Below are positions 19,910-38,332 of a stretch of 64,000 nucleotides of DNA, piece by piece; within the stretch, counting starts at the first letter, position 1; every line of letters begins with the position of its first letter. Below the pieces are notes generated by a model. That model did no database searches. It worked only from the letters and a program-made list of their open reading frames with translations, and was not told where the DNA came from. Source of the stretch: Escherichia coli (GTDB lineage Bacteria; Pseudomonadota; Gammaproteobacteria; Enterobacterales; Enterobacteriaceae). Position numbers and translations under genes: made by a program. The stretch is from the NCBI RefSeq assembly GCF_013315695.1, contig NZ_CP054353.1, one strand, 5' to 3'.

Positions 19910-19916
19910 GGACGCT

Positions 19917-21511: not shown

Positions 21512-24065
21512 ACCGGTAGGCGATCTGGTCGTTGATTTGAGTCTGGATGCGGCCAGATTTGACGAGCAGATGGCCAGAGTCAGGCGTCATTTTTCCGGTA
21601 CGGAAAGTGATGCGAAAAAAACAGCGGCAGTCGTTGAACAGTCGCTGAGCCGACAGGCGCTGGCTGCACAGAAAGCGGGGATTTCCGTCGGGCAGTATAA
21701 AGCCGCCATGCGTATGCTGCCTGCACAGTTCACCGACGTGGCCACGCAGCTTGCCGGCGGGCAAAGTCCGTGGCTGATCCTGCTGCAACAGGGGGGGCAG
21801 GTGAAGGACTCCTTCGGCGGGATGATCCCCATGTTCAGGGGGCTTGCCGGTGCGATCACCCTGCCGATGGTGGGGGCCACCTCGCTGGCGGTGGCGACCG
21901 GTGCGCTGGCGTATGCCTGGTATCAGGGCAACTCAACCCTGTCCGATTTCAACAAAACGCTGGTCCTTTCCGGCAATCAGGCGGGACTGACGGCAGATCG
22001 TATGCTGGTCCTGTCCAGAGCCGGGCAGGCGGCAGGGCTGACGTTTAACCAGACCAGCGAGTCACTCAGCGCACTGGTTAAGGCGGGGGTAAGCGGTGAG
22101 GCTCAGATTGCGTCCATCAGCCAGAGTGTGGCGCGTTTCTCCTCTGCATCCGGCGTGGAGGTGGACAAGGTCGCTGAAGCCTTCGGGAAGCTGACCACAG
22201 ACCCGACGTCGGGGCTGACGGCGATGGCACGCCAGTTCCATAACGTGACGGCGGAGCAGATTGCGTATGTTGCTCAGTTGCAGCGTTCCGGCGATGAAGC
22301 CGGGGCATTGCAGGCGGCGAACGAGGCCGCAACGAAAGGGTTTGATGACCAGACCCGCCGCCTGAAAGAGAACATGGGCACGCTGGAGACCTGGGCAGAC
22401 AGGACAGCGCGGGCATTCAAATCCATGTGGGATGCGGTGCTGGATATTGGTCGTCCTGATACCGCGCAGGAGATGCTGATTAAGGCAGAGGCTGCGTTTA
22501 AGAAAGCAGACGACATCTGGAATCTGCGCAAGGATGATTATTTTGTTAACGATGAAGCGCGGGCGCGTTACTGGGATGATCGTGAAAAGGCCCGTCTTGC
22601 GCTTGAAGCCGCCCGAAAGAAGGCTGAGCAGCAGACTCAACAGGACAAAAATGCGCAGCAGCAGAGCGATACCGAAGCGTCACGGCTGAAATATACCGAA
22701 GAGGCGCAGAAGGCTTACGAACGGCTGCAGACGCCGCTGGAGAAATATACCGCCCGTCAGGAAGAACTGAACAAGGCACTGAAAGACGGGAAAATCCTGC
22801 AGGCGGATTACAACACGCTGATGGCGGCGGCGAAAAAGGATTATGAAGCGACGCTGAAAAAGCCGAAACAGTCCGGCGTGAAGGTGTCTGCGGGCGATCG
22901 TCAGGAAGACAGTGCTCATGCTGCCCTGCTGACGCTTCAGGCAGAACTCCGGACGCTGGAGAAGCATGCCGGAGCAAATGAGAAAATCAGCCAGCAGCGC
23001 CGGGATTTGTGGAAGGCGGAGAGTCAGTTCGCGGTACTGGAGGAGGCGGCGCAACGTCGCCAGCTGTCTGCACAGGAGAAATCCCTGCTGGCGCATAAAG
23101 ATGAGACGCTGGAGTACAAACGCCAGCTGGCTGCACTTGGCGACAAGGTTACGTATCAGGAGCGCCTGAACGCGCTGGCGCAGCAGGCGGATAAATTCGC
23201 ACAGCAGCAACGGGCAAAACGGGCCGCCATTGATGCGAAAAGCCGGGGGCTGACTGACCGGCAGGCAGAACGGGAAGCCACGGAACAGCGCCTGAAGGAA
23301 CAGTATGGCGATAATCCGCTGGCGCTGAATAACGTCATGTCAGAGCAGAAAAAGACCTGGGCGGCTGAAGACCAGCTTCGCGGGAACTGGATGGCAGGCC
23401 TGAAGTCCGGCTGGAGTGAGTGGGAAGAGAGCGCCACGGACAGTATGTCGCAGGTAAAAAGTGCAGCCACGCAGACCTTTGATGGTATTGCACAGAATAT
23501 GGCGGCGATGCTGACCGGCAGTGAGCAGAACTGGCGCAGCTTCACCCGTTCCGTGCTGTCCATGATGACAGAAATTCTGCTTAAGCAGGCAATGGTGGGG
23601 ATTGTCGGGAGTATCGGCAGCGCCATTGGCGGGGCTGTTGGTGGCGGCGCATCCGCGTCAGGCGGTACAGCCATTCAGGCCGCTGCGGCGAAATTCCATT
23701 TTGCAACCGGAGGATTTACGGGAACCGGCGGCAAATATGAGCCAGCGGGGATTGTTCACCGTGGTGAGTTTGTCTTCACGAAGGAGGCAACCAGCCGGAT
23801 TGGCGTGGGGAATCTTTACCGGCTGATGCGCGGCTATGCCACCGGCGGTTATGTCGGTACACCGGGCAGCATGGCAGACAGCCGGTCGCAGGCGTCCGGG
23901 ACGTTTGAGCAGAATAACCATGTGGTGATTAACAACGACGGCACGAACGGGCAGATAGGTCCGGCTGCTCTGAAGGCGGTGTATGACATGGCCCGCAAGG
24001 GTGCCCGTGATGAAATTCAGACACAGATGCGTGATGGTGGCCTGTTCTCCGGAGGTGGACGATGA
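21504..24065 (+). CDS. H: Tail tape measure protein H
   Basis: 853 aa, coiled-coil rich, lambda gpH. Confidence 0.9.
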   Translation: MAEPVGDLVVDLSLDAARFDEQMARVRRHFSGTESDAKKTAAVVEQSLSRQALAAQKAGISVGQYKAAMRMLPAQFTDVATQLAGGQSPWLILLQQGGQVKDSFGGMIPMFRGLAGAITLPMVGATSLAVATGALAYAWYQGNSTLSDFNKTLVLSGNQAGLTADRMLVLSRAGQAAGLTFNQTSESLSALVKAGVSGEAQIASISQSVARFSSASGVEVDKVAEAFGKLTTDPTSGLTAMARQFHNVTAEQIAYVAQLQRSGDEAGALQAANEAATKGFDDQTRRLKENMGTLETWADRTARAFKSMWDAVLDIGRPDTAQEMLIKAEAAFKKADDIWNLRKDDYFVNDEARARYWDDREKARLALEAARKKAEQQTQQDKNAQQQSDTEASRLKYTEEAQKAYERLQTPLEKYTARQEELNKALKDGKILQADYNTLMAAAKKDYEATLKKPKQSGVKVSAGDRQEDSAHAALLTLQAELRTLEKHAGANEKISQQRRDLWKAESQFAVLEEAAQRRQLSAQEKSLLAHKDETLEYKRQLAALGDKVTYQERLNALAQQADKFAQQQRAKRAAIDAKSRGLTDRQAEREATEQRLKEQYGDNPLALNNVMSEQKKTWAAEDQLRGNWMAGLKSGWSEWEESATDSMSQVKSAATQTFDGIAQNMAAMLTGSEQNWRSFTRSVLSMMTEILLKQAMVGIVGSIGSAIGGAVGGGASASGGTAIQAAAAKFHFATGGFTGTGGKYEPAGIVHRGEFVFTKEATSRIGVGNLYRLMRGYATGGYVGTPGSMADSRSQASGTFEQNNHVVINNDGTNGQIGPAALKAVYDMARKGARDEIQTQMRDGGLFSGGGR

Positions 24066-26467: not shown

Positions 26468-29400
26468 ATGGGTAAAGGAAGCAGTAAGGGGCATACCCCG
26501 CGCGAAGCGAAGGACAACCTGAAGTCCACGCAGTTGCTGAGTGTGATCGATGCCATCAGCGAAGGGCCGGTTGAAGGTCCGGTGGATGGATTAAAAAGCG
26601 TGCTGCTGAACAGTACGCCGGTGCTGGACACTGAGGGGAATACCAACATCTCCGGTGTCACGGTGGTGTTCCGTGCCGGTGAGCAGGAGCAGACACCGCC
26701 GGAGGGGTTTGAATCCTCCGGCTCCGAGACGGTGCTGGGTACGGAAGTGAAATATGACACGCCGATCACCCGCACCATTACGTCTGCAAACATCGACCGT
26801 CTGCGCTTTACCTTCGGTGTACAGGCACTGGTGGAAACCACCTCAAAGGGTGACAGGAATCCGTCGGAAGTCCGTCTGCTGGTTCAGATACAACGTAACG
26901 GTGGCTGGGTGACGGAAAAAGACATCACCATTAAGGGCAAAACCACCTCGCAGTATCTGGCCTCGGTGGTGGTGGGTAACCTGCCGCCGCGCCCGTTTAA
27001 TATCCGGATGCGCAGGATGACGCCGGACAGCACCACAGACCAGCTGCAGAACAAAACGCTCTGGTCGTCATACACCGAAATCATCGATGTGAAACAGTGC
27101 TACCCGAACACGGCACTGGTCGGCGTGCAGGTGGACTCGGAGCAGTTCGGCAGCCAGCAGGTGAGCCGTAATTATCATCTTCGCGGGCGCATTCTGCAGG
27201 TGCCGTCGAACTATAACCCGCAGACGCGGCAATACAGCGGTATCTGGGACGGAACGTTTAAGCCGGCATACAGCAACAACCCGGCCTGGTGTCTGTGGGA
27301 TATGCTGACCCACCCGCGCTACGGCATGGGGAAACGTCTTGGTGCGGCGGATGTGGATAAATGGGCGCTGTATGTCATCGGCCAGTACTGCGACCAGTCA
27401 GTGCCGGACGGTTTTGGCGGCACGGAGCCGCGCATCACCTGTAATGCCTGGCTGACCACGCAGCGTAAGGCGTGGGATGTGCTCAGTGATTTCTGCTCGG
27501 CGATGCGCTGTATGCCGGTATGGAACGGGCAGACGCTGACGTTCGTGCAGGACCGACCATCAGATAAGGTGTGGACCTATAACCGCAGTAATGTGGTGAT
27601 GCCGGATGATGGCGCGCCGTTCCGCTACAGCTTCAGCGCCCTGAAGGACCGCCATAATGCCGTTGAGGTGAACTGGATTGACCCGAACAACGGCTGGGAG
27701 ACGGCGACAGAGCTTGTTGAAGATACGCAGGCCATTGTCCGTTACGGTCGTAATGTCACGAAGATGGATGCCTTTGGCTGTACCAGCCGGGGGCAGGCAC
27801 ACCGCGCCGGGCTGTGGCTGATTAAAACTGAACTGCTGGAGACGCAGACCGTGGATTTCAGCGTGGGTGCTGAAGGGCTTCGCCATGTACCGGGCGATGT
27901 CATTGAAATCTGCGATGATGACTATGCCGGTATCAGCACCGGTGGTCGCGTGCTGGCGGTGAACAGCCAGACCCGGACGCTGACGCTCGACCGTGAAATC
28001 ACGCTGCCATCCTCCGGTACCACGCTGATAAGCCTGGTTGACGGAAGTGGTAATCCGGTCAGCGTGGAGGTTCAGTCCGTCACCGACGGACTTAAGGTGA
28101 AAGTGAACCGGGTTCCTGACGGCGTTGCAGAATACAGTGTGTGGGGGCTGAAGTTGCCGACGTTGCGTCAGCGCCTGTTCCGCTGTGTGAGTATCCGTGA
28201 GAACGATGACGGCACGTATGCCATCACTGCCGTGCAGCATGTACCGGAAAAAGAAGCCATCGTGGATAACGGGGCGCACTTTGACGGCGACCAGAGCGGC
28301 ACGGTGAATGGTGTCACGCCGCCAGCGGTGCAGCACCTGACCGCCGAAGTCACCGCAGACAGCGGGGAATATCAGGTGCTGGCGCGCTGGGACACGCCGA
28401 AGGTGGTGAAGGGCGTGAGCTTCCTGCTCCGTCTGACCGTAACAGCGGATGACGGCAGTGAGCGGCTGGTCAGCACGGCCCGGACGACGGAAACCACATA
28501 CCGCTTCACGCAACTGGCGCTGGGGAACTACAGACTGACAGTCCGGGCGGTAAATGCGTGGGGGCAGCAGGGCGATCCGGCGTCGGTATCGTTCCGGATT
28601 GCCGCACCGGCAGCACCGTCGAGGATTGAGCTGACGCCGGGCTATTTTCAGATAACCGCCACGCCGCATCTTGCCGTTTATGACCCGACGGTACAGTTTG
28701 AGTTCTGGTTCTCGGAAAAGCGGATTACCGATATCAGGCAGGTTGAAACCACAGCCCGCTATCTTGGTACGGCGCTGTACTGGATAGCCGCCAGTATCAA
28801 TATCAAACCGGGCCATGATTATTACTTTTATATCCGCAGTGTGAACACCGTTGGCAAATCGGCATTCGTGGAGGCTGTCGGTCAGGCGAGCGATGATGCG
28901 GAAGGTTACCTGGATTTTTTCAAAGGCCAGATAACCGAATCCCATCTCGGCAAGGAGCTGCTGGAAAAAGTCGAGCTGACGGAGGATAACGCCAGCAGAC
29001 TGGAGGAGTTTTCGAAAGAGTGGCAGGACGCTAACGATAAGTGGAATGCCATGTGGGGCGTCAAAATTGAGCAGACCAAAGACGGCAAACATTATGTCGC
29101 GGGTATTGGCCTCAGCATGGAGGACACGGAAGAAGGCAAGCTGAGCCAGTTTCTGGTTGCCGCTAACCGTATCGCGTTTATTGACCCGGCAAACGGGAAT
29201 GAAACGCCGATGTTTGTGGCGCAGGGCAATCAGATATTTATGAACGACGTGTTCCTGAAGCGCCTGACGGCCCCGACCATTACCAGTGGTGGAAATCCAC
29301 CGGCATTTTCCCTGACATCAGACGGAAAGCTGACCGCTAAAAATGCGGATATCAGTGGCAGAGTGAATGCGAACGCCGGGACGCTCAACAATGTCACGGT

Positions 29401-29881
29401 AAATGAAAACTGTACGATTAAGGGCATGCTGGAGGCGACTCAGGTCAGAGGTGACTTCGTTAAAGCTGTATCCAAATCATTCCCGAAACAGGCTGGTACG
29501 TGGGGTAACACGGAAACACCAAACGGGACGGTTACAGTCACCATCAGCGATGATCATAACTTTGACCGTCAAATCATTATTCCGCCCATTATCTTTAACG
29601 GAATAGCGTATAGCGATCCGGGAAGTGGTAATAACCCGGGAGGTACAAGATACACGGGTTATGGTTTTGAAGTTCGCAAAAACGGTGTATTAATCGCATC
29701 CAGAGAAACTAAAGGGGCCATTCCCGGTAGCTACAGTGCGGTTATTGATATGCCGAGTGGCAGGGGAAGCGTCACTCTGGAGTTTAAGGTTTTCCATAAA
29801 GGCAATCAGTGGGCAGGTAATATCACCGACTGTACGGTGATTGTGACCAAAAAAGCCGCTTCCGGCATCAGTATTCGTTGA
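26468..29881 (+). CDS. J: Central tail fibre / host-specificity protein J
   Basis: 1137 aa, lambda gpJ; the C-terminal ~150 codons are visibly lower in GC. Confidence 0.9.
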
Positions 29882-29901
29882 AATTGTTATAACCCATATA
29901 A

Positions 29902-29927
29902 GGGCACCAGAAATGGTGCCTTTTTTA
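29902..29927 (+). terminator. Rho-independent terminator after J
   Basis: gggcacc-agaaat-ggtgcc followed by ttttttatt. Confidence 0.5.
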
Positions 29928-29950
29928 TTGCAGAAAAGCGAGAGGTAATT

Positions 29951-30550
29951 ATGCGTAAACTTTATGCCGCCATTTTGTCCGCAGCCATTTGTCTGGCCGT
30001 ATCCGGTGCGCCTGCATGGGCATCTGAACATCAGTCCACGCTGAGCGCGGGGTATCTTCATGCCCGGACCAACGTTCCCGGCAGTGATGATCTGAACGGG
30101 ATTAACGTGAAATACCGTTATGAGTTTACGGATACGCTGGGGCTGGTGACGTCATTCAGCTATGCAGGAGACAAGAATCGCCAGCTGACCCGTTACAGCG
30201 ATACCAGCTGGCATGAAGATTCCGTGCGTAACCGCTGGTTCAGCGTGATGGCGGGGCCGTCTGTGCGCGTGAATGAATGGTTCAGCGCGTATGCGATGGC
30301 GGGTATGGCTTACAGCCGTGTTTCGACTTTTTCCGGGGATTACCTTCGCGTAACTGACAACAAGGGGAAAACGCACGATGTGCTGACCGGAAGTGATGAC
30401 GGTCGCCACAGCAACACGTCTCTGGCGTGGGGGGCTGGCGTGCAGTTTAACCCGACCGAATCCGTGGCCATTGATATTGCTTATGAAGGTTCTGGCAGTG
30501 GTGACTGGCGCACTGACGGTTTCATCGTGGGTGTCGGTTATAAATTCTGA
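29951..30550 (+). CDS. lom: Lom outer-membrane protein (Ail/Lom family)
   Basis: Signal peptide MRKLYAAILSAAICLAVSGAPAWA, 8-strand barrel, C-terminal ..GFIVGVGYKF. Confidence 0.85.
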   Translation: MRKLYAAILSAAICLAVSGAPAWASEHQSTLSAGYLHARTNVPGSDDLNGINVKYRYEFTDTLGLVTSFSYAGDKNRQLTRYSDTSWHEDSVRNRWFSVMAGPSVRVNEWFSAYAMAGMAYSRVSTFSGDYLRVTDNKGKTHDVLTGSDDGRHSNTSLAWGAGVQFNPTESVAIDIAYEGSGSGDWRTDGFIVGVGYKF

Positions 30551-30576
30551 TTAGCCAGGTAACACAGTGTTATGAC

Positions 30577-30605
30577 AGCCCGCCGGTTCAGGTGGGCTTT
30601 TTTGT
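30577..30605 (+). terminator. Rho-independent terminator after lom
   Basis: agcccgcc-ggttca-ggtgggc followed by tttttt. Confidence 0.5.
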
Positions 30606-30614
30606 GGGGGGAAT

Positions 30615-33011
30615 ATGGCAGTAAAGATTTCAGGTGTACTGAAAGACGGCACAGGAAAACCGGTACAGAACTGCTCAATCCAGCTGAAAGCAAAACGTAA
30701 CAGCACCACGGTGGTAGTGAACACGCTGGCCTCAGAAAATCCGGATGAAGCCGGGCGTTACAGTATGGATGTTGAGTATGGCCAGTACAGCGTTATCCTG
30801 CTGGTTGAAGGTTTTTCGCCTTCACATGCCGGGACCATCACCGTGTATGAAGATTCTAAGCCGGGGACGCTGAATGATTTTCTCGGTGCCATGACGGAAG
30901 ATGATGTCATGCCGGAGGCATTGCGTCGTTTTGAGGAAATGGTGGAAGAAGCGGCACGCAACGCTGAAGCCGCCTCTCAGAGCGCAGCGGCGGCAAAGAA
31001 ATCCGAAACTGCAGCGGCATCATCGAAGAACGCGGCGAAAACCTCAGAAACGAATGCAGCTAATAGTGCACAGGCGGCAGCGACCTCAAAGACTGCATCG
31101 GCAAACTCCGCGACAGCAGCCAAAAAATCAGAAACCAACGCGAAAAATAGCGAGACAGCCGCAAAGACGAGCGAAACCAACGCAAAGTCCAGCCAGACGG
31201 CAGCGAAAACCAGCGAAACGAATGCCAAAGCCAGTGAAACTGCGGCAAAAAACAGCCAGGTTGCAGCAGCCCAAAGCGAGAGCGCGGCAGCCGGTTCTGC
31301 GACTTCAGCAGCTGGATCAGCAACTGCTGCGGCTAACAGCCAGAAAGCTGCGAAGACGAGTGAAACTAACGCAAAGTCCAGCCAGACGGCAGCGAAGACC
31401 AGCGAAACGAATGCCAAAGCCAGCGAAACTGCGGCGAAAAACAGTCAGGATGCAGCAGCCCAAAGCGAGAGTGCTGCAGCTGGTTCTGCAAGCGCGGCGG
31501 CTGCTTCTGCCACTGCATCAGCCAACAGTCAAAAAGCAGCAAAAACCAGTGAAACCAATGCAAAGACAAGCGAGACTGCAGCGGCGAACTCGGCGAAAGC
31601 ATCGGCAGCAAGCCAGACAGCAGCTAAAGCAAGTGAAGACGCAGCCAGAGAGTATGCAAGTCAGGCAGCAGAGCCGTATAAATATGTCTTACAGCCACTG
31701 CCTGATGTGTGGATACCGTTTAACGATTCACTGGATATGATTACGGGCTTTTCGCCGTCATATAAAAAAATTGTTATTGGTGATGATGAAATAACGATGC
31801 CTGGCGACAAGGTTGTTAAGTTTAAACGCGCATCAACTGCCACATATATCAATAAATCAGGCGTATTTAGTGTTGCTAAAATTGATGAGCCACGATTTGA
31901 AAAAGAAGGTTTATTGATTGAAGGACAGCGCACTAACTATTTTGTTAAATCCAATACTCCCGCTGAATGGACGAGTACCAGCAATATCGATAAAACTAAT
32001 AATGGTGTTGATGAATTTGGTTTTTCATATGCCAAAATGCGAACAAAAGATAATATGACAGGACAATCATCTGCACTTAGTCTGCATACATGCAGTGCAT
32101 CCCGGGGGATTGATGTTAGTGGCGATAATAAGTATTGCACTGTTTCATGCAGGGTTAAAGCTCCTGATGGTCTTCGTTGTCGTTTGCGTTTTGAAAAATA
32201 CGATGGGTCGGTTTATACATTTTTAGGAGATGCTTATTTAACTTTCGGAACTCTGATAATAGAAAAAACTGGCGGAGCAGCCAATAGAATAGCAGCTACT
32301 GCAACTAAAGATCCGGTTACAGGGTGGATTTTCTATGAGGCAACTATAGAAGCTGTTGAAGGTGAAACCTTAATTGGCGCAATGATTCAGTATGCGCCGA
32401 AAAAAGGTGGTATAACTGAAGCGGGAGATTATATTTACCTTGCAACACCACAATTTGAAAACGGCGGATGTGCTTCATCTTTTGTTATTACGACAACTGC
32501 ACCCGCAACCCGCTCCAGTGATATGGTGACGATCCCAACTGAAAATAATATCTATAATAGACCGCTTACGTGTCTTGTCGAGGTTAATAGAAATTGGGGC
32601 GATATTCCTCCTAATGTAGCACCGCGTATTTTTGATTTTTCTGGTGTGCCACCTATTGAGTCAATTACATACGCTTTTAACACAACTGAGAAATATTACG
32701 GTCAGCTTTATATGCAAACTTATAAAGCGTCGACAAGTACTTACGTTTCTAGTGTGTTTGCTGGTCGAGCTGATGTTCGAAAATTCATTGGTGGTTTTAA
32801 TATTTATTCTGATGGTACTAAACGAGTAGTTTCTAACGGTGAGGCTACTAAAACTATGAAAACGGAGTGGACGGGCGTAAAAACACGGACCTTTATTCGA
32901 ATTGGAGGTCAAGCCACATCGGGAACTCGTCATCTATTCGGCCATTTGAGAAATCTTCGTCTCTGGCATAAAGAATTAACTGATGCGCAAATGGGGGAGA
33001 GTATTAAATGA
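30615..33011 (+). CDS. stf: Side tail fibre Stf, intact single ORF; lambda-type N-terminus and repeats, divergent low-GC C-terminal domain
   Basis: 798 aa; N-terminus MAVKISGVLKDGTGKPVQNCSIQLKA..; Ser/Ala/Thr/Lys repeats; C-terminus ends ..GHLRNLRLWHKELTDAQMGESIK, resembling LamG/ConA-like lectin domain ends. Confidence 0.8.
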   Translation: MAVKISGVLKDGTGKPVQNCSIQLKAKRNSTTVVVNTLASENPDEAGRYSMDVEYGQYSVILLVEGFSPSHAGTITVYEDSKPGTLNDFLGAMTEDDVMPEALRRFEEMVEEAARNAEAASQSAAAAKKSETAAASSKNAAKTSETNAANSAQAAATSKTASANSATAAKKSETNAKNSETAAKTSETNAKSSQTAAKTSETNAKASETAAKNSQVAAAQSESAAAGSATSAAGSATAAANSQKAAKTSETNAKSSQTAAKTSETNAKASETAAKNSQDAAAQSESAAAGSASAAAASATASANSQKAAKTSETNAKTSETAAANSAKASAASQTAAKASEDAAREYASQAAEPYKYVLQPLPDVWIPFNDSLDMITGFSPSYKKIVIGDDEITMPGDKVVKFKRASTATYINKSGVFSVAKIDEPRFEKEGLLIEGQRTNYFVKSNTPAEWTSTSNIDKTNNGVDEFGFSYAKMRTKDNMTGQSSALSLHTCSASRGIDVSGDNKYCTVSCRVKAPDGLRCRLRFEKYDGSVYTFLGDAYLTFGTLIIEKTGGAANRIAATATKDPVTGWIFYEATIEAVEGETLIGAMIQYAPKKGGITEAGDYIYLATPQFENGGCASSFVITTTAPATRSSDMVTIPTENNIYNRPLTCLVEVNRNWGDIPPNVAPRIFDFSGVPPIESITYAFNTTEKYYGQLYMQTYKASTSTYVSSVFAGRADVRKFIGGFNIYSDGTKRVVSNGEATKTMKTEWTGVKTRTFIRIGGQATSGTRHLFGHLRNLRLWHKELTDAQMGESIK
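31179..31556 (+). repeat. Two tandem ~189-bp copies (63 codons each) inside stf
   Basis: aacgcaaagtccagccagacggcagcgaa... recurs at 31179 and 31368 at ~90% identity. Confidence 0.7.
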
Positions 33012-33289
33012 AAGATTTAACACTCAAATTTGCAGACAGGGCCGACTTTTCGGCCTTTATGGAGAGCATTGGCTATTATGATGACGAGTCGATGCAGGAT
33101 GATATTCTTATTGACGTGATAGGTAATGTGTACAAAGAAACCGGAGAACTTACTGAAGATGGCGAGCCGGTATGTGTTAAGGAGGACGGATATTTTGTAA
33201 ATGTGCGCATCATTAATGATTCGCAAATATCGTCATTATTCGATGAATACGTGGTTGCTGTTGAGCATCAACTCCGTAGCTGGATGTGA
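33008..33289 (+). CDS. Hypothetical highly acidic 93-aa protein, translationally coupled to stf
   Basis: ATGA overlap with the stf stop; D/E-rich; no recognisable family. Confidence 0.45.
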   Translation: MKDLTLKFADRADFSAFMESIGYYDDESMQDDILIDVIGNVYKETGELTEDGEPVCVKEDGYFVNVRIINDSQISSLFDEYVVAVEHQLRSWM

Positions 33290-33298
33290 GGAAGAAAA

Positions 33299-34003
33299 AT
33301 GGCTACATCGACAGTAATTCCTGATGACATCAAAACGCTAAAGGGAGATGTCAGTAAGGCAAAGGAAGATATTTCCTCAATTAACGTAAAAGTATCAACG
33401 CTTCAGACTGATATGGACAGTGCAAAGCAGGATATCAGTACCAGATACACAAAAACAGAAGTGGATAATAAGCTGAAAAACAAAGTGGAAGTGAACGATC
33501 TGGAAAGTGGTCGTTATGGCGGAGATTTTTACCCGCTGACTGGCCGTGAAGCGTTTTATTTATGGGGATTGGGCACAACTACAGCGGCGGCAAATCTTTA
33601 TCTTAATCCTGACCCTGCAATTTCGTCTGTGCTGCGGTCAACATCGTCTATCCGCTATAAACATTCAGTAGAGACGATAGATTCAGAGCACGCCGATCTC
33701 ATTTTCAGGATGCGCCCTGTGTGGTACAGGTCGCAATGCGAAAATGACAGGCGTGACTGGGGATTCTATGGATTGATTGCCGAGGAAGTAGGAGAAATTG
33801 CCCCTCAGTTTGTTCACTGGCGACCAGCCAACGAAGATGATGCACCGGAAACCATTTCCAGCAATGGCCTTGTTGCCGAAGGTGTAATGTACGAACGTCT
33901 GGTTGTTCCACTGATTCACCATATCCAGAAACTGACTGAAAGAGTTGATGAACTTGAGTCAGAATTGAAGTTGTTATCAACTTCCCAAAGCGATATCGGA
34001 TAA
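33299..34003 (+). CDS. Short fibre-like protein: coiled-coil N-terminus plus C-terminal intramolecular-chaperone (peptidase S74-like) domain
   Basis: ..STSSIRYKHSVETID..LIFRMRPVWYR..GFYGLIAEEVGEIAPQFV..LVAEGVMYERLVVPLIHHIQKLTERVDELESEL.. Confidence 0.55.
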   Translation: MATSTVIPDDIKTLKGDVSKAKEDISSINVKVSTLQTDMDSAKQDISTRYTKTEVDNKLKNKVEVNDLESGRYGGDFYPLTGREAFYLWGLGTTTAAANLYLNPDPAISSVLRSTSSIRYKHSVETIDSEHADLIFRMRPVWYRSQCENDRRDWGFYGLIAEEVGEIAPQFVHWRPANEDDAPETISSNGLVAEGVMYERLVVPLIHHIQKLTERVDELESELKLLSTSQSDIG

Positions 34004-34013
34004 AGGAGGAGTA

Positions 34014-34307
34014 ATGGATATAACACCTTTTCTTCATGCGCTTTGTGCTGTGGCTGCGCAGGTAATGATTGGTCTTTTTGCCGGAAACTGGGTTTACGGG
34101 GCGATAGCCGGTTGTACGTTCTTCATTGCGCGTGAACACACCCAGGCAGAATATCGCTGGATTGAAATGTTCGGGCATGGCAAGTGGATTAACATGCCGT
34201 GGTGGGGCGGTTTTGATCCGCGTGTTTGGGATGTGGCAAGCCTGATAGATTTTGCTGTGCCGGTGGTGGCGTGTCTGCTGGTCTGGCTGTTGGTTAATCG
34301 TGGGTGA
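34014..34307 (+). CDS. Small predicted membrane protein (97 aa)
   Basis: Strong RBS aggagg; hydrophobic segments LHALCAVAAQVMIGLFAGNWVYGAIAGCTFFIA and LIDFAVPVVACLLVWLLV. Confidence 0.5.
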   Translation: MDITPFLHALCAVAAQVMIGLFAGNWVYGAIAGCTFFIAREHTQAEYRWIEMFGHGKWINMPWWGGFDPRVWDVASLIDFAVPVVACLLVWLLVNRG

Positions 34308-34317
34308 AAAAAGGTGA

Positions 34318-34446
34318 GCTGTATATGCAACGGAGGAAGAAACCCCGTTGCTGGAAGCCTGGAAAAAGTATCGGGTGTTGCTGAACCGTGTTGATACATC
34401 AACTGCACCTGATATTGAGTGGCCTACGAACCCTGTCAGGGAGTAA
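34318..34446 (+). pseudogene. 3' remnant of a tail fibre assembly gene (tfa)
   Basis: 42 codons ..[39 protein letters not shown] with an in-frame stop immediately upstream. Confidence 0.65.
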
Positions 34447-34500
34447 TCATTGGGATTATGCCGCAGCACGTCTTAAGCAAGAACGTGCTGCGGTTGGATG

Positions 34501-35169
34501 CTATTTTTTCCCTGAAGCGGAAAACATTACTACAGTACCTTGAACCTTGGTTTTAACATTCTCGAAATGCTCTGAGAGTATATGTGTTAAGCCTTCTTCG
34601 GAATCTTTTGTGTTTGAAAAGATGCCTTTCTGATTGTAAATGCGCATCAGTTTTTGACCGAAGCTATTGTGCACAACTCCATCGCCAAGAATTGTGGCTC
34701 CGTATAGAGTTCCATCGTCAGTTAAGGCCTGCGCCGCATTGCGTATTACACAGCTTTTTGTAGATATATTTCCAGGCAGGCAGTGAAGAAGGTAAAACAT
34801 GGAAATGGAATCAAATTGACCATGTAACGCCGCGGGATAAGGTTCAAAAACATCATGGCTAATTTTATGTTTAATTTTTGATTCCCCAGCCCTTGTAGAT
34901 GCCGCGTTCAGGCTAGCTTCGTTCAAATCCATTAAAGATATCAGACTACTCTCAGGTACGTGAGTAAGGTAAAACCCAGTTCCAACACCAATATCCAGAT
35001 GGTTGTTACCTAAATGTTCCAGAAAGTGTGGAAGAAGGTGTTCCTTTGTAGGACATCCCCATGCAAGCCGATTTGATACTCCCAAAACCCACCAGTCATA
35101 AAGCTTTAGGGTAAGTGGTGTGTAAATTTTAGCCCCATCATCTGTGTTTTTTTTCATTAATTTCACCAT
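34501..35169 (-). CDS. ybcY: Class I SAM-dependent methyltransferase (YbcY-like)
   Basis: Motif I ..HLDIGVGTGFY..; low GC; same position between tfa fragments as ybcY in DLP12. Confidence 0.7.
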   Translation of the reverse strand: MVKLMKKNTDDGAKIYTPLTLKLYDWWVLGVSNRLAWGCPTKEHLLPHFLEHLGNNHLDIGVGTGFYLTHVPESSLISLMDLNEASLNAASTRAGESKIKHKISHDVFEPYPAALHGQFDSISMFYLLHCLPGNISTKSCVIRNAAQALTDDGTLYGATILGDGVVHNSFGQKLMRIYNQKGIFSNTKDSEEGLTHILSEHFENVKTKVQGTVVMFSASGKK

Positions 35170-35225
35170 GTTATAGTTTTATTTGTGAATTAAATCAATT
35201 ATGGCGATGAATTACAAGGGGTTAA

Positions 35226-35524
35226 ATGCTGCCGCAGCATAGCGATATTGAAATAGCCTGGTATGCTTCGATACAGCAGGAGCCGAATGGCTGGAAGACC
35301 GTCACCACACAGTTCTACATCCAGGAATTCAGTGAGTATATTGCGCCACTGCAGGATGCTGGGAAATCGCAACGGAGGAAGAAAGATCGTTGCTGGAGGC
35401 ATGGAATAAATATCGGGTATTGTTGAATCATGTTGATACATCAGTAGCTCTGGGTATGAAGCTGTTTGTAACTCATGTTACAGTAACAGCCATTACTATC
35501 TCGAAGGTGCAAAATGTATATTGA
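35226..35524 (+). pseudogene. Frameshifted tfa fragment (tfaX-like)
   Basis: ..[10 protein letters not shown].. in one frame, then ..[27 protein letters not shown].. in another. Confidence 0.6.
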
Positions 35525-35710
35525 TTTGATATTTTATAAATTTACTTCGAATCTGGCACGTCAACTTTTGATTAAAGTAATATCAGTTTTCGGCGAAAAA
35601 AGGACCGTGTACATGAGACGATTTCATACAAGAATAACAAAAATATGAATATGCTCCCAATGCAATATATGTTTTGCATTGGGAGCAAATAGCGGAATAT
35701 TTTGAAATTA

Positions 35711-37192
35711 TTATATTTCTGCTTCAGAATTTCCTGGGCAGTATATATTTTCTATTTTTTGTGGAGTGATCAGGTGATGTACAACTGCTTTATCTACACA
35801 TAAATTAACTCCGGTGAGAGCTAATGTATGCCCATCACCATTTATTGTTAGTAACGGGCTGGAAAATTTCTCTGCCATCTTACGGGCATTAATCCAGGGC
35901 GTTGTTGGGTCGTATTTGTGTGCTACAAACAGTAAACCAGAGGGCAGAACAGTATTTTTCAGGCGAGTTTTGTTCAGGTCGCTATGTATTGGCCATAATT
36001 CACAAAAATCAGGTGAATCGGAACGTCCATTGTCAAAGTTAATAGCCGGGAAGGCATTCGCAAGAGCGTCTTTTCGGGATTTTCGCTCTTCTGGTGTTAA
36101 TTGCTCATCCCCCTGATCTACACAGAGGATTACCCCCGAAGCATCGCTTGACTCTTCTGAGGCTATCTGAGCACTGAGCGCAGTTTCAATTTCATTACTG
36201 ACAATCCCCTGAGAGAACTGGCGTATGGCAGTTGCAAGGGTTGGCCATGATGAACGCCATAGCAGAAGGTCTGTTGTTAATGATATGAGTTCATCTGAAG
36301 ATATATTTTCTCCCTTACTGTCTAATAAAGGTTTGTGATGTAATTTTGATAATAGCTCATGGAACTGAGTTATTGCCTTATCTCTGTCTGAAGAAAGCGG
36401 GCAACTTTTTGTACGCGCACACCAGGATGCAAAGCGATCAAACGTTTCCTGATAACTCTGTGCCTGTTTGAGTTGCCATGTGAAGTTGTCCTCCAGGTCA
36501 TCGATATCGACGACTCCATCAAGAACGATAGATCTTACGTTGTAGGGAAAACGTTCTGCATATAAGGCTGCAATTTGAGTTCCATACGAATACGCCACGG
36601 CTGTCAGTTGTTTATCCCCCAAGGCTTGCCTAATACGATCAATATCGTATACAGCCTCGTTAGAGCCGATATGGCGAATGACTTCGGCTCCGGTATTATG
36701 GATACAGGCATTAATTTTATTTAATACTTGTTGCTTTTCGGTTATGTTTTCCTGAGTCTCTGTATCTGATTGCCGGCAGTTTATTGTCGGAGTGGACTGT
36801 CCGACGCCTCGAGGATCAAATCCAATAATATCCCATGACTCACGAAGATTTGTGACTGGCCAGTCAAAGTTAATATAAGGATTTATGCCTGGTAACCCGG
36901 GACCACCACTTATTATCAGGATACTTCCTTTATGCTTGCTTTTTGCCGGCAATTTTGTCAACGCTAGTTTGACTTGTGATTTTTTTTCATAAGAAGCATC
37001 TCCGCCTGTGTCTGTATATTTTAATGGAACAGACAAATAACCACATAGTAAGTCAGGAGACGGTTTTTCCTCACCAAACCAGTGGTTGAATTGACTGGCC
37101 ATACAGGATTGCCACTGTATCTGCTGGGCAGATACGGTTACTGGTAGAAGTAACGTTAAAACAACTTTGAAATGAGTAATTATTTTTCGCAT
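35711..37192 (-). CDS. Secreted alpha/beta hydrolase (S33 / TAP-like peptidase family)
   Basis: Signal peptide MRKIITHFKVVLTLLLPVTVSA; nucleophile elbow AYSYGT; C-terminal ..TINGDGHTLALTG..; low GC. Confidence 0.7.
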   Translation of the reverse strand: MRKIITHFKVVLTLLLPVTVSAQQIQWQSCMASQFNHWFGEEKPSPDLLCGYLSVPLKYTDTGGDASYEKKSQVKLALTKLPAKSKHKGSILIISGGPGLPGINPYINFDWPVTNLRESWDIIGFDPRGVGQSTPTINCRQSDTETQENITEKQQVLNKINACIHNTGAEVIRHIGSNEAVYDIDRIRQALGDKQLTAVAYSYGTQIAALYAERFPYNVRSIVLDGVVDIDDLEDNFTWQLKQAQSYQETFDRFASWCARTKSCPLSSDRDKAITQFHELLSKLHHKPLLDSKGENISSDELISLTTDLLLWRSSWPTLATAIRQFSQGIVSNEIETALSAQIASEESSDASGVILCVDQGDEQLTPEERKSRKDALANAFPAINFDNGRSDSPDFCELWPIHSDLNKTRLKNTVLPSGLLFVAHKYDPTTPWINARKMAEKFSSPLLTINGDGHTLALTGVNLCVDKAVVHHLITPQKIENIYCPGNSEAEI

Positions 37193-37378
37193 TGTGTCTC
37201 TGAATATCGGAATAAAGATAAGATTTGAATATATTGAGGTCTTGTGTTGCGGTAAGAGATTACACGTTATGACATAGGTTAAATGCTTACAAAATTAGTG
37301 GATATTGTCTACTTGTAACTGTAAACAAATTCCCCGGGGTTATACAATACCACCGGGGAGAAAATCTGGTTAACTTCG

Positions 37379-38332
37379 TTAAAAGGTGTACTTAAGACCA
37401 GCAGTAGTGATGAAGTTATAGTTTTCTATGCCTGCACCATTTTTGCTGTAGTCTGAAGTGTTATCATTGTGATCATAAAGTGAAGTATTACCTTTTTTAT
37501 TCGTAACCCGATTCCATGCGCCTTCAACATAAACTTTTGCGTTAGGTGTTACGTAATAACCTGCATTGACTGCAACAGAATAGTAATTTTGGTCTTTGAC
37601 TTTACTGCGATAAGTGATTCTTTTTCCTGGGTCATAGTGCTCATCGTTATCAGATGCTTCCACCCAGCCGCTGTATTTAAATGTGCCACCTAGCTCAAAA
37701 TCTTCATAACGATAACTTCCAGTCAAGCCAATGTAGGGCATTTTAAAACGTTGTTTGTAGCCGATTGCTCTTTCTCCATTCGGGAAGGAGCCGATATCAT
37801 CTCTGAATCCCTCCTCAGAACTGTAGATATAGGAACCACCTCTGGCTGTAAAGCTATAACGGCTTTCCTGATATCCGGCCATGAGTCCCAGGCGGTAATT
37901 GGGTTCGTTGAGGAGCCAGCCTTTGATATTCAGATCAAATTCGTTGGCATAATTGAGTTGTGTATCAGGGTGCCTACTTTCATCTGTCCAGGTTCCGGGG
38001 TTACTGGAATCCATCCAGTCCTGATCGACCATATTGCCACCTCGGCTGCCGAGAGTAGTCCAGCCCGCAGCCCCAATAGATATCTGGGGCATCAAATCCC
38101 AATTAATTGCACCTTTAATAATTGCAGCGTTATTGAATTTCCAGTCGAGTTGACTGACTTTTCGGCCTCCTTCTTCAGCTAGATAAACGCGCTCTTTTGT
38201 TTTTCCGCTCAGAGTTCCAAGACTAATGTCCGCATTTATGTTGTCAGGAGTAAACGATATAGTCTCGGTAGAAGCAAAAGAGCTGATCGCAATAGGGGTT
38301 GTCAGGACTATTCCCAGAAGTTTCGCCCGCAT
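37379..38332 (-). CDS. ompT: Omptin outer-membrane protease OmpT
   Basis: 317 aa, MRAKLLGIVLTTPIAISSFA...TAGLKYTF. Confidence 0.9.
   Translation of the reverse strand: MRAKLLGIVLTTPIAISSFASTETISFTPDNINADISLGTLSGKTKERVYLAEEGGRKVSQLDWKFNNAAIIKGAINWDLMPQISIGAAGWTTLGSRGGNMVDQDWMDSSNPGTWTDESRHPDTQLNYANEFDLNIKGWLLNEPNYRLGLMAGYQESRYSFTARGGSYIYSSEEGFRDDIGSFPNGERAIGYKQRFKMPYIGLTGSYRYEDFELGGTFKYSGWVEASDNDEHYDPGKRITYRSKVKDQNYYSVAVNAGYYVTPNAKVYVEGAWNRVTNKKGNTSLYDHNDNTSDYSKNGAGIENYNFITTAGLKYTF

Follow-up and report, generated by a model that had tools for sequence, protein, structure and literature searches.

Gene content and boundaries of the exchanged block

The analysed stretch of Escherichia coli DNA (64,000 nucleotides, hereafter the window) carries, on its plus strand and at the positions given in an earlier note on this sequence, a side tail fibre gene and three smaller genes, flanked by two arms in common with lambda. 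The relevant features are as follows.

30423..30964, plus strand: left arm common to lambda (blastn), comprising the 3' end of lom and the first ~350 nt of stf
30615-33011, plus strand: stf, ORF of 798 aa, side tail fibre of the phrog_1419 type (full-length match)
31635..31904, plus strand: Stf residues 341-430, conserved segment opening the exchanged distal part, delimited by identity across related loci
31905..33008, plus strand: Stf residues 431-798, hypervariable distal region, delimited by identity across lambdoid loci
33008-33289, plus strand: ORF of 93 aa, acidic protein, phrog_1361
33299-34003, plus strand: ORF of 234 aa, read here as a second (branch) fibre protein
33299..33388, plus strand: N-terminal motif MATSTVIPDDIKTLKGDVS... 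of the 234-aa protein, which also opens longer second-fibre proteins
33644..34000, plus strand: Peptidase_S74 intramolecular chaperone (Pfam PF13884), residues 116-234 of the 234-aa protein
34014-34307, plus strand: ORF of 97 aa, membrane protein of the 'Ybl63' family, phrog_1443
34321-34446, plus strand: tfa 3' remnant of 41 codons plus stop, within the right arm
34326-34495, plus strand: right arm common to lambda, 87% identical to lambda 22437-22608
34460..34494, plus strand: strong hairpin with a U-rich run behind it, separating the tfa remnant from a convergent methyltransferase gene

Comparison with lambda by blastn revealed that the left arm matches lambda 19458-19999 with 86.9% identity over 542 nt, that homology ends at 30964, the left recombination boundary of the exchanged block, and that it resumes at 34326. 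The block that is foreign relative to lambda spans 30965-34325 and contains the distal part of stf together with the 93-aa, 234-aa and 97-aa genes. The earlier note had described a three-gene cassette without lambda counterpart, starting at 33008 and inserted into a lambda-type fibre module. While this observation was confirmed for lambda itself, its interpretation is only in part supported: the foreign sequence starts inside stf at ~30965, the distal two-thirds of stf were exchanged as well, and stf, the 93-aa gene and the second fibre gene form a unit that constitutes the complete lateral-fibre locus of virulent T1-like phages.

At the right end, the translation of the tfa remnant matches the last residues of lambda Tfa, tail-fibre-assembly PHROGs match as well, and RefSeq lists a tfa pseudogene without N-terminus at 34321-34446. 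The remnant had previously been given as 42 codons; its location after the 97-aa ORF stands, while its length is 41 codons and a stop. In 41 of the 50 related loci that extend far enough, it comes immediately after the 97-aa gene; the truncation of tfa is an old feature common to related prophage loci. The hairpin at 34460..34494 (MFE -28.5 kcal/mol, z = -5.2; none of 200 shuffled sequences folds as well) is probably the terminator of the late operon.

The side tail fibre and its acidic partner

Three parts make up Stf: an N-terminal anchor resembling that of lambda (residues 1-131 match Pfam phage_tail_N, residues 1-94 PDB entry 9e7m, 'Tail fiber protein'), a shaft of Ala/Ser/Thr-rich repeats, and a distal part that is not of lambda type and has an NCBIfam GTA_spike_fiber domain at residues 434-634. 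Domain searches of Stf returned no S74 domain, and RefSeq annotation and the lambda comparison revealed no intact tfa downstream of stf. Residues 341-430 are 59-100% identical across the related loci compared (74-100% without PhiR55_1) and 88% identical to the T1-like phage SLUR29, whereas the flanking segments drop to 22-65%; judged by this conservation, the segment is a candidate docking node. Residues 431-798, presumed to be the receptor-binding part, share just 22-65% identity among otherwise near-identical lambdoid loci. Homologues of the distal part (query residues 367-798) were found in 218 phage records from six phage groups.

The 93-aa gene overlaps stf by an ATGA at 33008-33011, which joins the stf stop to the next start codon, and encodes a protein with a pI of 4.05 (21 D+E versus 7 K+R), so that both the coupling and the highly acidic character described earlier hold. 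Its homologues occur in 181 phage records whose organism-name breakdown is very similar to that of the 218 records for distal Stf, and the two form a fixed pair in lambdoid, T1-like, Dhillonvirus, Nonagvirus, T5-like and rV5-like phages. The 93-aa protein is a constant partner of the phrog_1419-type fibre, and, since this fibre has neither Tfa nor an S74 domain of its own, it most likely serves that fibre specifically, in assembly or as an accessory factor. It does not qualify as a tip-specific chaperone in the sense of Tfa or gp38, because it remains 91-98% identical beside Stf distal regions that are merely 27-60% identical. It is also not Tfa-like by hhalign (probability 0.07%), and structure comparison gave no informative match for its fold.

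The 234-aa protein, a proposed minimal second fibre

The 234-aa gene is preceded by the ribosome-binding site GAGGAAG, and the 97-aa gene by AAGGAGG, both read directly from the sequence. The 234-aa protein, 'tail fiber domain-containing protein' in RefSeq and matched by phrog_3299, phrog_454 and other tail-fibre families, consists of an N-terminal motif, a coiled-coil-like stretch, ~50 further residues and the C-terminal S74 chaperone. The S74-like domain proposed earlier was recovered by HMM search (Pfam PF13884, residues 116-172, E = 2.2e-5) and is backed by a catalytic dyad: when the C-terminal half is aligned with chain 8hqz of a phage L-shaped tail fibre and with 7dc3, the auto-processing domain of MYRF, Ser116 (codon 33644-33646) and Lys121 (codon 33659-33661) fall on the dyad residues. 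The depositors' name for 8hqz is 'L-shaped tail fiber assembly', and we take the aligned chain to be LtfA of phage DT57C. Predicted self-cleavage at Ser116 would yield a mature protein of 115 aa.

The N-terminal motif, M-x-T-x-T-x-IP-x-DI-x-x-LK, is common to four phage groups and also opens the 345-aa alternative (phage 2G7b), the SLUR29 homologue, KarlBarth gp30 and JenP2 gp25; a tblastn search with residues 1-50 additionally located it in ESCO3 and the T5-like phage HMD-P4. This segment is presumed, from its recurrence, to dock onto Stf. The 234-aa protein is the shortest in a series of second fibre proteins with this motif and an S74 end, and because longer second-fibre proteins have the motif in common with it, it is better read as a minimal second (branch) fibre. 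Those longer proteins carry a domain of receptor-binding size; the predicted 115-aa stub leaves very little room for one, which speaks against receptor binding by the 234-aa protein itself.

Distribution, exchangeability and selection

The full cassette is present in 720 of 5,426 complete E. coli genomes (~13%), and the short protein of the 234-aa type exists in thousands of copies, both of which contradict the earlier view that an S74 chaperone encoded apart from a receptor-binding domain is atypical. Nor is the gene a remnant of a longer disrupted fibre gene, as all full-length relatives are stand-alone proteins of 221-269 aa. Comparison of gene order with relatives showed that the three genes form the right-hand half of a side-tail-fibre module that is common and swappable and also occurs in many virulent coliphages. 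In the virulent T1-like phages SLUR29, PeterMerian and swan01, the lateral-fibre locus consists entirely of the trio of stf, 93-aa gene and S74 gene, and in KarlBarth, JenP2, VSe12 and JeffSchatz a fibre gene is followed by a ~90-aa gene and then by another annotated tail fibre gene. Among 80 related viral loci, 38 have the 234-aa gene, 28 the 345-aa gene and nine neither, with four other arrangements and one locus too short to classify. In one of them (L092), the distal part of Stf is 100% and the 93-aa protein 98% identical to the window, yet the 345-aa gene follows. All three genes are under purifying selection, with median dN/dS values of 0.20 (93-aa), 0.15 (234-aa) and 0.32 (97-aa) across 22-50 distinct alleles per gene, and the module is carried by the plaque-forming phages PhiR49_1 and IdasGreatGrand.

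The membrane protein Ybl63

The 97-aa ORF encodes a conserved membrane protein, in agreement with the earlier prediction: hydrophobic stretches span residues 3-39 and 74-95, and an AF2 model (pLDDT 90.6) contains helices at 4-23, 26-53 and 74-96. The protein bears the name 'Ybl63' in AFDB and UniProt, and the family is uncharacterised. It comprises 446 clusters at 50% identity, of which the best 150 listed are all small stand-alone proteins, and its 24 invariant positions are concentrated in the loop at residues 40-73. This loop lies in the cytoplasm according to a positive-inside tally, a placement that speaks against the protein masking an outer-membrane receptor directly. Direct reading of the sequence revealed no lipobox, a PADLOC search gave no match, and no named protein family matched the protein. 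We also found no promoter-like site of its own for the gene in the window; together with its position in the late operon, this makes it ill suited to be a factor expressed by the lysogen.

The 60 matches in phage records are distributed over Escherichia (53), Aeromonas (six) and Salmonella (one). The 35 of the 53 Escherichia records that were listed are all lambdoid or ~39-46 kb in size, Gally included, and the virulent coliphage groups in which the fibre module occurs are not represented among them; among the matches listed, the range comprises lambdoid and P22-like coliphages and a few Aeromonas phages. Ybl63 is likewise absent from the T1-like loci examined. The gene follows directly after the P22-like tailspike in Gally and after S74-bearing fibres in Leclercia and Desulfovibrio, and, from alpha- to gamma-proteobacteria and in several unrelated phage types, it is repeatedly the neighbour of fibre or tailspike genes. 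Triads of the distal Stf domain, a 93-aa-like protein and Ybl63 were found in Comamonas, Pantoea, Chelativorans and one metagenome contig, in two gene orders. In roughly half of the contexts sampled, no recognisable fibre gene adjoins Ybl63, and in Aeromonas species Ybl63 occupies a conserved chromosomal site that does not look phage-derived. The Gally copy is flanked by the tailspike gene and int and is preceded by a terminator-like hairpin and a promoter-like site, although the count of promoter-like sites there is no higher than in shuffled sequence. The position between tailspike and int is occupied by gtrABC in P22.

Phage genes whose products modify the host surface or prevent entry, among them P22 gtrABC and SieA, T5 Llp, Cor and HK97 gp15, lie beside receptor-binding genes. 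As a small membrane protein next to a receptor-binding gene, Ybl63 resembles this group. An exclusion role is plausible. However, no sequence or fold similarity to gtrABC, SieA, Llp, Cor or HK97 gp15 was found, the conserved, probably cytoplasmic loop and the chromosomal copies in Aeromonas have no parallel there, and a lipobox is missing.

Comparison with known fibre systems

The same gene order, a fibre gene, an overlapping ~90-aa gene and a second fibre protein, occurs in the lateral fibre loci of BASEL siphoviruses (Drexlerviridae such as PeterMerian/Bas05, Dhillonvirus and Nonagvirus; Maffei et al. 2021, PMC8594841), with protein identities of 44-58% for distal Stf, 47-53% for the 93-aa and 55-60% for the 234-aa protein. 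In contrast to these virulent phages, the module in the window belongs to a temperate phage, sits on an Stf anchor of lambda type and adds the Ybl63 gene and the tfa remnant, both of which are missing there. Two-protein fibres like the one proposed here are known from the branched, L-shaped LtfA/LtfB of the T5-like phage DT57C (PMC4728585, PMC10713586) and from the T-shaped fibre of IrisVonRoten/Bas32. LtfB docks on LtfA via its N-terminal 45 residues (PMC4728585), while T-shaped BASEL fibres that have intramolecular chaperones are mounted on a proximal fibre with a galectin-like C-terminal domain, an extra domain that has been reported for the proximal fibre of IrisVonRoten (PMC11990801). As in the LtfA/LtfB type, the second protein ends in a self-cleaving S74 domain and is thought to dock via a short conserved N-terminal segment. 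The differences are that LtfA has its own S74 domain whereas the Stf of the window does not, that an additional 93-aa gene separates the two fibre genes, and that the second protein is far shorter, with a predicted mature part of 115 aa; no sequence match was detected between the LtfB N-terminus and that of the 234-aa protein.

Regarding S74 auto-processing domains in general (K1F endosialidase, T5 pb1, GA-1 gp12, human MYRF), the 234-aa protein agrees in its Pfam domain, in the C-terminal location of that domain and in the Ser/Lys(+5) dyad, whereas the passenger is unusually small here (~115 residues instead of a long fibre or tailspike) and cleavage is a prediction. With lambda Stf/Tfa the locus shares its placement behind J and lom, ~115 codons at the start of stf and ~40 at the end of tfa; the distal part of Stf is unrelated, and there is no functional Tfa.

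Interpretation and alternative explanations

Taken as a whole, the region is best explained as part of a complete alternative side-tail-fibre module, namely its right half, a reading to which we assign a probability of roughly 70%. Recombination between the conserved 5' end of stf and 3' end of tfa would have replaced the distal stf of lambda type along with the 5' portion of tfa, giving an Stf with a lambda-like anchor and a distal part of the type found in T1-like, T5-like, Nonagvirus, Dhillonvirus and rV5-like coliphages. The 93-aa protein would be translated in step with Stf and support it in assembly or as an accessory. The 234-aa protein may dock on Stf through its N-terminal motif, its S74 domain would drive folding of the trimer and then cut itself off at Ser116, leaving the 115-aa stub. 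Its slot is interchangeable: related loci either fill it with the 345-aa version, whose middle domain is larger, or leave it empty. Ybl63 would be an inner-membrane protein outside the virion that travels with receptor-binding genes.

That the three ORFs are decaying, non-functional leftovers of a disrupted longer fibre gene is highly improbable. Such a reading could draw on the adjoining tfa pseudogene, on the alignment of the 234-aa protein to the last 238 of 1,385 positions of a PHROG profile and on one related locus (L018) that keeps the S74 half alone, but it is contradicted by the selection and conservation data, namely the dN/dS values of 0.15-0.32, ORFs that are intact in most of the 80 related loci, the consistent length of full-length 234-aa homologues, good ribosome-binding sites and the presence of the genes in plaque-forming phages. 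We also regard it as unlikely that the 234-aa protein is a free-standing chaperone, absent from the virion, that folds Stf in trans. The 234-aa protein would then supply trimerisation to an Stf that lacks both an S74 domain and a Tfa; the protein contains little beyond a coiled coil and the S74 domain, its gene is always in a fibre locus, two genes after the fibre, and homologues are annotated as 'putative lateral tail fiber chaperone' (BASEL) or 'chaperone of endosialidase'. However, the Stf family and the 93-aa gene occur without any S74 gene in phage Lambda_2E9 and in nine of the 80 related loci, identical Stf proteins are paired with either the 234-aa or the 345-aa gene, as in L092, the N-terminal motif recurs in longer proteins with a middle domain of their own, as expected of a docking segment, and S74 domains are described as acting in cis.

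The remaining alternatives concern mainly the 97-aa gene. The model of the earlier note, in which a three-gene insertion after stf knocked out tfa and brought in a membrane protein made by the lysogen for exclusion or receptor masking, is doubtful. It accounts for the absence of the genes from lambda and the truncated tfa, and is compatible with the lack of Ybl63, among the matches listed, in virulent coliphage groups with the fibre module and with its setting in Gally; against it stand the inclusion of distal stf in the exchanged block, the single functional fibre unit that Stf and the first two genes form in virulent phages, the missing PADLOC or named-family match and lipobox, the cytoplasmic loop, which makes direct receptor masking unlikely, and the promoter evidence from the window and Gally. 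It is somewhat easier to conceive, if still tentative, that Ybl63 is an unrelated passenger (moron) with a cellular membrane function unconnected to fibres, the end of late operons next to fibre genes being a known hot spot for such genes. Its heterogeneous neighbours (tailspike, P2-like fibre, gpJ-like protein, terminase, ligA, pirin), the chromosomal copies in Aeromonas and the virulent phages that do without it fit this notion, but the distal Stf domain, the 93-aa-like protein and Ybl63 are kept together in alpha-, beta- and gamma-proteobacterial prophages in two gene orders, with reading frames that often overlap or nearly abut, which exceeds the coincidence expected of a hot spot.

Under the module reading, our best guess is that Ybl63 may act at the inner membrane, where it could protect the lysogen or the infected cell from phage entry or alter the display of envelope glycans. 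With the rest of the cassette being ordinary, Ybl63 is the sole part of it that merits follow-up.

Organization and boundaries of the side-tail-fibre module

The fibre region of the window comprises the following features, the first four taken from a mechanical ORF list:

30615-33011 (+): stf, encoding the side tail fibre Stf (798 aa)
33008-33289 (+): gene of the 93-aa acidic protein
33299-34003 (+): gene of the 234-aa S74 protein
34014-34307 (+): gene of the 97-aa membrane protein (Ybl63)
34321-34446: tfa 3' remnant, 41 codons plus stop, its translation being the lambda Tfa C-terminus

The stop codon of stf and the start codon of the 93-aa gene overlap as ATGA at 33008-33011, as read from the sequence, and the Shine-Dalgarno-like motifs GAGGAAG and AAGGAGG precede the second and third genes after stf, respectively. 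Across distinct alleles of related loci, the median dN/dS values of 0.20 (93-aa), 0.15 (234-aa) and 0.32 (97-aa) indicate that the genes are maintained and are therefore neither chance ORFs nor debris. The ORFs, the ATGA coupling, the S74 domain, the hydrophobic 97-aa protein and the tfa remnant were all present as described in the earlier note (sequence, Pfam, AF2). The position of the remnant after the membrane gene is borne out by its match to the Tfa C-terminus, while its length of 42 codons had to be corrected to 41 codons plus stop. In RefSeq it appears as a tfa pseudogene without its N-terminus, and the Tfa match is limited to the last ~21% of the protein.

On the left, lambda homology takes in the 3' end of lom and some 350 nt at the start of stf (30423-30964, 87%); on the right it resumes at 34326-34495, covering the last ~120 nt of tfa and 50 nt beyond (87%). 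The foreign block therefore spans 30965-34325, contains the distal two-thirds of stf together with the three genes, and stands in place of the lambda distal stf and about 155 tfa codons. The idea that 33008-34446 is a three-gene insertion thus had to be abandoned, as the exchanged unit also takes in distal stf and this interval is merely its right half. A tfa remnant lies directly 3' of the 97-aa gene in 41 of the 50 related loci that extend far enough, so that the truncation is old and shared.

A prophage next to ompT in E. coli isolate AF3 matches the region at 100% identity, and Escherichia phage PhiR49_1 (recorded host E. coli ECOR13) matches it at 99.5%. The three genes also follow stf in phages IdasGreatGrand, which stems from swamp mud, and PhiR55_1, and 720 of 5,426 complete E. 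coli genomes contain 80% or more of 33008-34446. This alternative side-tail-fibre module is ordinary, very common and of an already known kind, and for annotation it should be read as one exchangeable module from the stf 5' end to the tfa 3' end, not as an insertion. Overall, the observation of the earlier note was confirmed and its interpretation partly supported. In the deposited PhiR49_1 record, lom is annotated as two CDS (L001 2328-2941, locus coordinates) and stf as 14 codons longer at its 5' end; lom of the window (29951-30550) is one intact 199-aa ORF.

Transcription signals and flanking cargo

A terminator-like hairpin lies at 30577-30598, directly after lom and 17 nt ahead of the stf start codon, so that expression of stf and the three genes would depend on antiterminated late transcription, and lom could be expressed separately. 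Another hairpin, at 34460-34494 and followed by a U-rich run (-28.5 kcal/mol, z=-5.2), separates the tfa remnant from the end of the methyltransferase gene; it was missed by a simple terminator scan and is likely a bidirectional terminator. This downstream structure is the terminator-like element nearest to the 97-aa gene, for which no promoter of its own was found on the + strand of 30400-35400, and the 97-aa gene therefore looks like the last gene of a late operon.

The tfa 3' end recurs as a 75-nt direct repeat of 85% identity (34327-34401 and 35369-35443), which brackets a convergent class I SAM methyltransferase gene (ybcY-like, 34501-35169, minus strand) and a DinI pseudogene. With the repeat on both sides, this cargo sits between two tfa remnants, an arrangement that resembles the order tfa-ybcY-tfaX in prophage DLP12 of K-12. 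Further downstream, past the fibre region, at 35711-37192 (minus strand) and beyond, follow a 493-aa secreted-looking alpha/beta hydrolase and then ompT, a cargo also found in phages PhiR49_1 and 2G7b. An Rfam search of 29000-38000 returned no match.

Stf and the 93-aa protein

Distal Stf matched phrog_1419 and phrog_5939 and carries an NCBIfam GTA_spike_fiber domain at residues 434-634; domain searches of Stf revealed no S74 domain, and no intact Tfa gene was found downstream. Homologues of distal Stf occur in 218 phage records and those of the 93-aa protein in 181, with very similar organism-name breakdowns, and wherever the context was inspected, the ~90-aa gene either overlaps the stop codon of the fibre gene or abuts it.

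Phages carrying the pair of fibre gene and ~90-aa gene

Lambdoid phages
T1-like Warwickvirus SLUR29, PeterMerian and swan01
Dhillonvirus KarlBarth
Nonagvirus JenP2
Tequintavirus VSe12
Vequintavirus JeffSchatz

Across these many phage groups, Stf and the 93-aa protein make up a fixed pair. Five records labelled as Campylobacter or Listeria phage (MG065692, MG065652, MG065676, MG065635 and OR847733) hold rV5-like or T5-like coliphage-type distal Stf and 93-aa genes and are probably mislabelled or contaminated.

The Stf shaft (~30940-31650, residues ~110-345) consists of Ala/Ser/Thr-rich repeats with motifs such as AAKTSETNAKSSQT, which yield several long spurious ORFs in other frames or on the opposite strand, e.g. 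30901-31740 (+) and 30977-31417 (-). Residues 341-430 of Stf are conserved, with 88% identity to T1-like SLUR29. Residues 431-798 reach 22-65% identity even among otherwise near-identical prophages, which looks like the pattern of a receptor-binding region under diversifying selection.

The 93-aa protein (pI 4.05, 21 acidic versus 7 basic residues) is 91-98% identical beside distal Stf regions that are 27-60% identical. A role as tip-specific chaperone was rejected, as it shows no variation parallel to that of the hypervariable distal Stf, and a relationship to Tfa was dismissed given an hhalign probability of 0.07% against lambda Tfa and no Pfam or PHROG tfa match. Structure prediction of the 93-aa protein, proposed in the earlier note, yielded an alpha/beta fold, and the fold search with this model returned no informative structural neighbour. 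We infer that the 93-aa protein may assist fibres of this type generally, as an assembly or accessory factor that acts on one of their conserved parts.

The 234-aa protein, a probable minimal second fibre

The HMM search suggested earlier did return a Peptidase_S74 match in the 234-aa protein (PF13884, residues 116-172 against model positions 1-57/58, E=2.2e-5, hmmscan), and many homologues with precomputed Pfam matches carry PF13884. The C-terminal half aligns with 8hqz, a chain from an L-shaped tail fibre of a phage, and with the human MYRF auto-processing domain, with S116-S-I-R-Y-K121 placed on the catalytic Ser/Lys positions of MYRF and likewise aligned with 8hqz. This Ser/Lys dyad is kept in IdasGreatGrand, PhiR55_1, SLUR29 and PeterMerian. 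The S74 domain is C-terminal and its passenger comprises just 115 residues, a coiled-coil-like stretch and ~50 aa, which are predicted to be what self-cleavage at Ser116 would leave.

The first ~20 residues, MATSTVIPDDIKTLKGDVS, also open the 345-aa gene found in the corresponding slot of phage 2G7b, T1-like homologues, KarlBarth gp30 and JenP2 gp25, and the motif M-x-T-x-T-x-IP-x-DI-x-x-LK is common to proteins of 98-348 aa with different distal parts from four phage groups. The 345-aa and JenP2 proteins continue with a ~190-residue middle domain and then a canonical S-D-R-D-L-K S74 motif. A comparison of 80 viral loci closely related to this one showed the 234-aa gene in the slot two genes after stf in 38, the 345-aa gene in 28, no gene in nine and another arrangement in four, one locus being too short to classify. 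In one of the compared loci (L092), distal Stf is identical to that of the window and the 93-aa protein 98% identical, yet the slot holds the 345-aa gene. These counts, this locus and the common N-terminus led to the conclusion that the slot is an independently exchangeable plug-in with a constant N-terminal adaptor. Partial genes also occur upstream of an intact 97-aa gene: the S74 half alone (residues 117-234) of the 234-aa gene in L018 (5634-5987), and the last 37 codons alone of the 345-aa gene in L023 (5562-5672) and L061 (5842-5952), so that deletions do occur in the second-fibre slot.

Other readings of the 234-aa protein were also weighed. The earlier note had regarded it as an atypical orphan chaperone, encoded apart from any receptor-binding domain. 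Another proposal, matching the BASEL annotation 'putative lateral tail fiber chaperone', is that it folds Stf in trans; this is weakened by nine loci and phage Lambda_2E9, which have the fibre and the 93-aa gene without an S74 gene. The PHROG alignment to positions 1147-1384 of 1385 suggested a truncated long fibre, but full-length relatives are all stand-alone proteins of 221-269 aa and no long full-length relative was found among them, which speaks against a remnant of a longer fibre gene. These relatives comprise E. coli prophage clusters of 2,928 and 650 sequences as well as proteins of T1-like phages at 55-60% identity. The apparent oddity is thus explained if the 234-aa protein is, as its sequence relatives indicate, a minimal second fibre and neither an orphan chaperone nor a remnant.

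In phage DT57C, LtfB uses its first 45 residues to dock on LtfA, and each of the two proteins has a self-cleaving chaperone domain at its end (PMC4728585, PMC10713586); the T-shaped fibres of BASEL phages attach to a proximal fibre having a galectin-like C-terminal domain (PMC11990801). The second-fibre slot resembles both models in being a plug-in with a constant N-terminal adaptor. As in the LtfA/LtfB type, a second fibre with a conserved, presumably docking N-terminal segment and a variable distal part is also present here. A tblastn search with residues 1-50 of the 234-aa protein against 50,697 phage records gave 54 matching records, and DT57C and phiEco32 were absent among the 45 listed; homology of the N-terminal motif to LtfB or phiEco32 gp15 was accordingly rejected, as it was not detected among the matches listed. 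Bacillus matches in this search cover the coiled-coil stretch alone (residues 10-48) and are taken to be compositional. The module can be read as a conserved node of Stf 341-430, the 93-aa protein and the N-terminal motif, to which the hypervariable distal Stf and the plug-in second fibre are attached, a layout that should help host-range prediction and fibre engineering.

Ybl63: structure and candidate functions

The 97-aa protein, named Ybl63 in UniProt and AFDB, contains two hydrophobic blocks, and its confident model (pLDDT 90.6) has helices at 4-23, 26-53 and 74-96. The family comprises more than 550 clusters at 90% identity and 446 at 50% identity, and the best 150 of the 446 representatives are all small stand-alone proteins, with no domain fusion among them. 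Thirty aligned members, among them proteins of Escherichia, Aeromonas, Comamonas, Leclercia and Salmonella, share 24 invariant positions, concentrated in the helix 2-3 loop (AREHTQAEYRWI...MPWWGGFD), whose conservation far exceeds that of the membrane helices. A positive-inside tally of 5.6 K+R on the N-terminus/loop side versus 1.0 on the other side favours a cytoplasmic loop, and direct masking of an outer-membrane receptor, one of the roles raised in the earlier note, is unlikely.

A Pfam search with Ybl63 gave nothing better than E=1.4, NCBIfam no match and the PADLOC defence models no match at E<=0.1; PHROG matches were phrog_1443 and phrog_34165 only, both without annotated function. Foldseek against AFDB50 returned its own family and weak matches to DUF2784, DUF2238 and DUF1772 membrane proteins only. 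Consequently, Ybl63 was rejected as a known superinfection-exclusion or defence protein, having no PADLOC, functional PHROG or fold match, and as a GtrA-like or O-antigen conversion protein by the Pfam and NCBIfam results; a lipoprotein was rejected as well. Class I holins, of ~100 aa with three transmembrane segments and a charged C-terminal tail and encoded in lysis cassettes, agree with Ybl63 in size and helix number. This identity was rejected as well, since no lysis genes neighbour Ybl63 in the window, its C-terminal tail has 3 residues on average, its loop hardly varies between classes of bacteria and Aeromonas carries chromosomal copies. Our literature search found no paper mentioning Ybl63 or PhiR49, and the virion proteomics of swan01 and mar004NP2 (supplement, abundant proteins only) held nothing on fibre-module genes.

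Distribution and genomic neighbours of Ybl63

Ybl63 matches were obtained in 60 phage records (53 Escherichia, 6 Aeromonas, 1 Salmonella). The 35 listed of the 53 Escherichia records are all lambdoid or ~39-46 kb in size, Gally included, with none from virulent coliphage groups, and none of the three T1-like loci inspected has Ybl63. In Gally the gene is flanked by the tailspike gene and int, with a terminator-like hairpin and a weak promoter-like site preceding it; this is where P22 has gtrABC.

Fibre genes recur as neighbours elsewhere. S74-bearing fibres are encoded immediately before Ybl63 in Desulfovibrio and in a P2/HP1-like prophage of Leclercia, and a gpJ-like protein before it in Comamonas. 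A jumbo Aeromonas phage has a tail fibre gene after Ybl63, and other tail-fibre genes are located upstream of it in Pantoea, Silvania, Comamonas and a Sphingomonadales genome. The most telling observation is a trio of Stf distal domain, 93-aa-like protein and Ybl63, present in three Comamonas species, in Pantoea and Chelativorans and on a metagenome contig; it comes in two gene orders, and its reading frames often overlap or nearly abut. Against a strict link with fibres stand the Aeromonas species that carry Ybl63 at a conserved, non-phage-looking site, two Sphingomonas-type loci in which it follows ligA, and, in the window, its apparent place as last gene of the late operon with no promoter of its own detected.

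The Aeromonas homologues, 55-57% identical, are chromosomal in A. aquatica, A. rivipollensis, A. media and A. taiwanensis (loci L107, L108, L109 and L112). Genes for pirin, a RIO1 kinase and two lipid A acyltransferases surround the copy of A. rivipollensis (L009), and the ORFs up- and downstream of Ybl63 are nearly equal in size in A. aquatica and A. rivipollensis (L107, L108). These features point to a copy of the family that belongs to the host.

Proposed role of Ybl63

We conclude that Ybl63 is probably a non-virion membrane protein evolutionarily tied to receptor-binding modules. A part in phage-entry exclusion or an effect on envelope glycans is our tentative best guess as to its function. 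Taken together with its neighbours, Ybl63 may represent a new class of inner-membrane factor tied to receptor-binding proteins and co-inherited with the Stf distal domain and the 93-aa protein in alpha- to gamma-proteobacterial prophages, a joint reading to which we assign a probability of roughly 0.3. Its almost invariant, basic and probably cytoplasmic loop would then have one of two tasks: binding, at the membrane, to the acidic 93-aa protein or to the fibre, or blocking a conserved step at the inner membrane in phage entry or envelope-glycan export.

The recurrence of Ybl63 beside receptor-binding genes in proteobacterial prophages is the sole part of the region that deserves experiment, and its role is directly testable, as PhiR49_1, 99.5% identical over the region, forms plaques. 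With ~450 clusters at 50% identity and its persistence beside receptor-binding genes, the family may hold new biology, and the joint reading, if true, would amount to a new kind of exclusion or conversion for lysogens.
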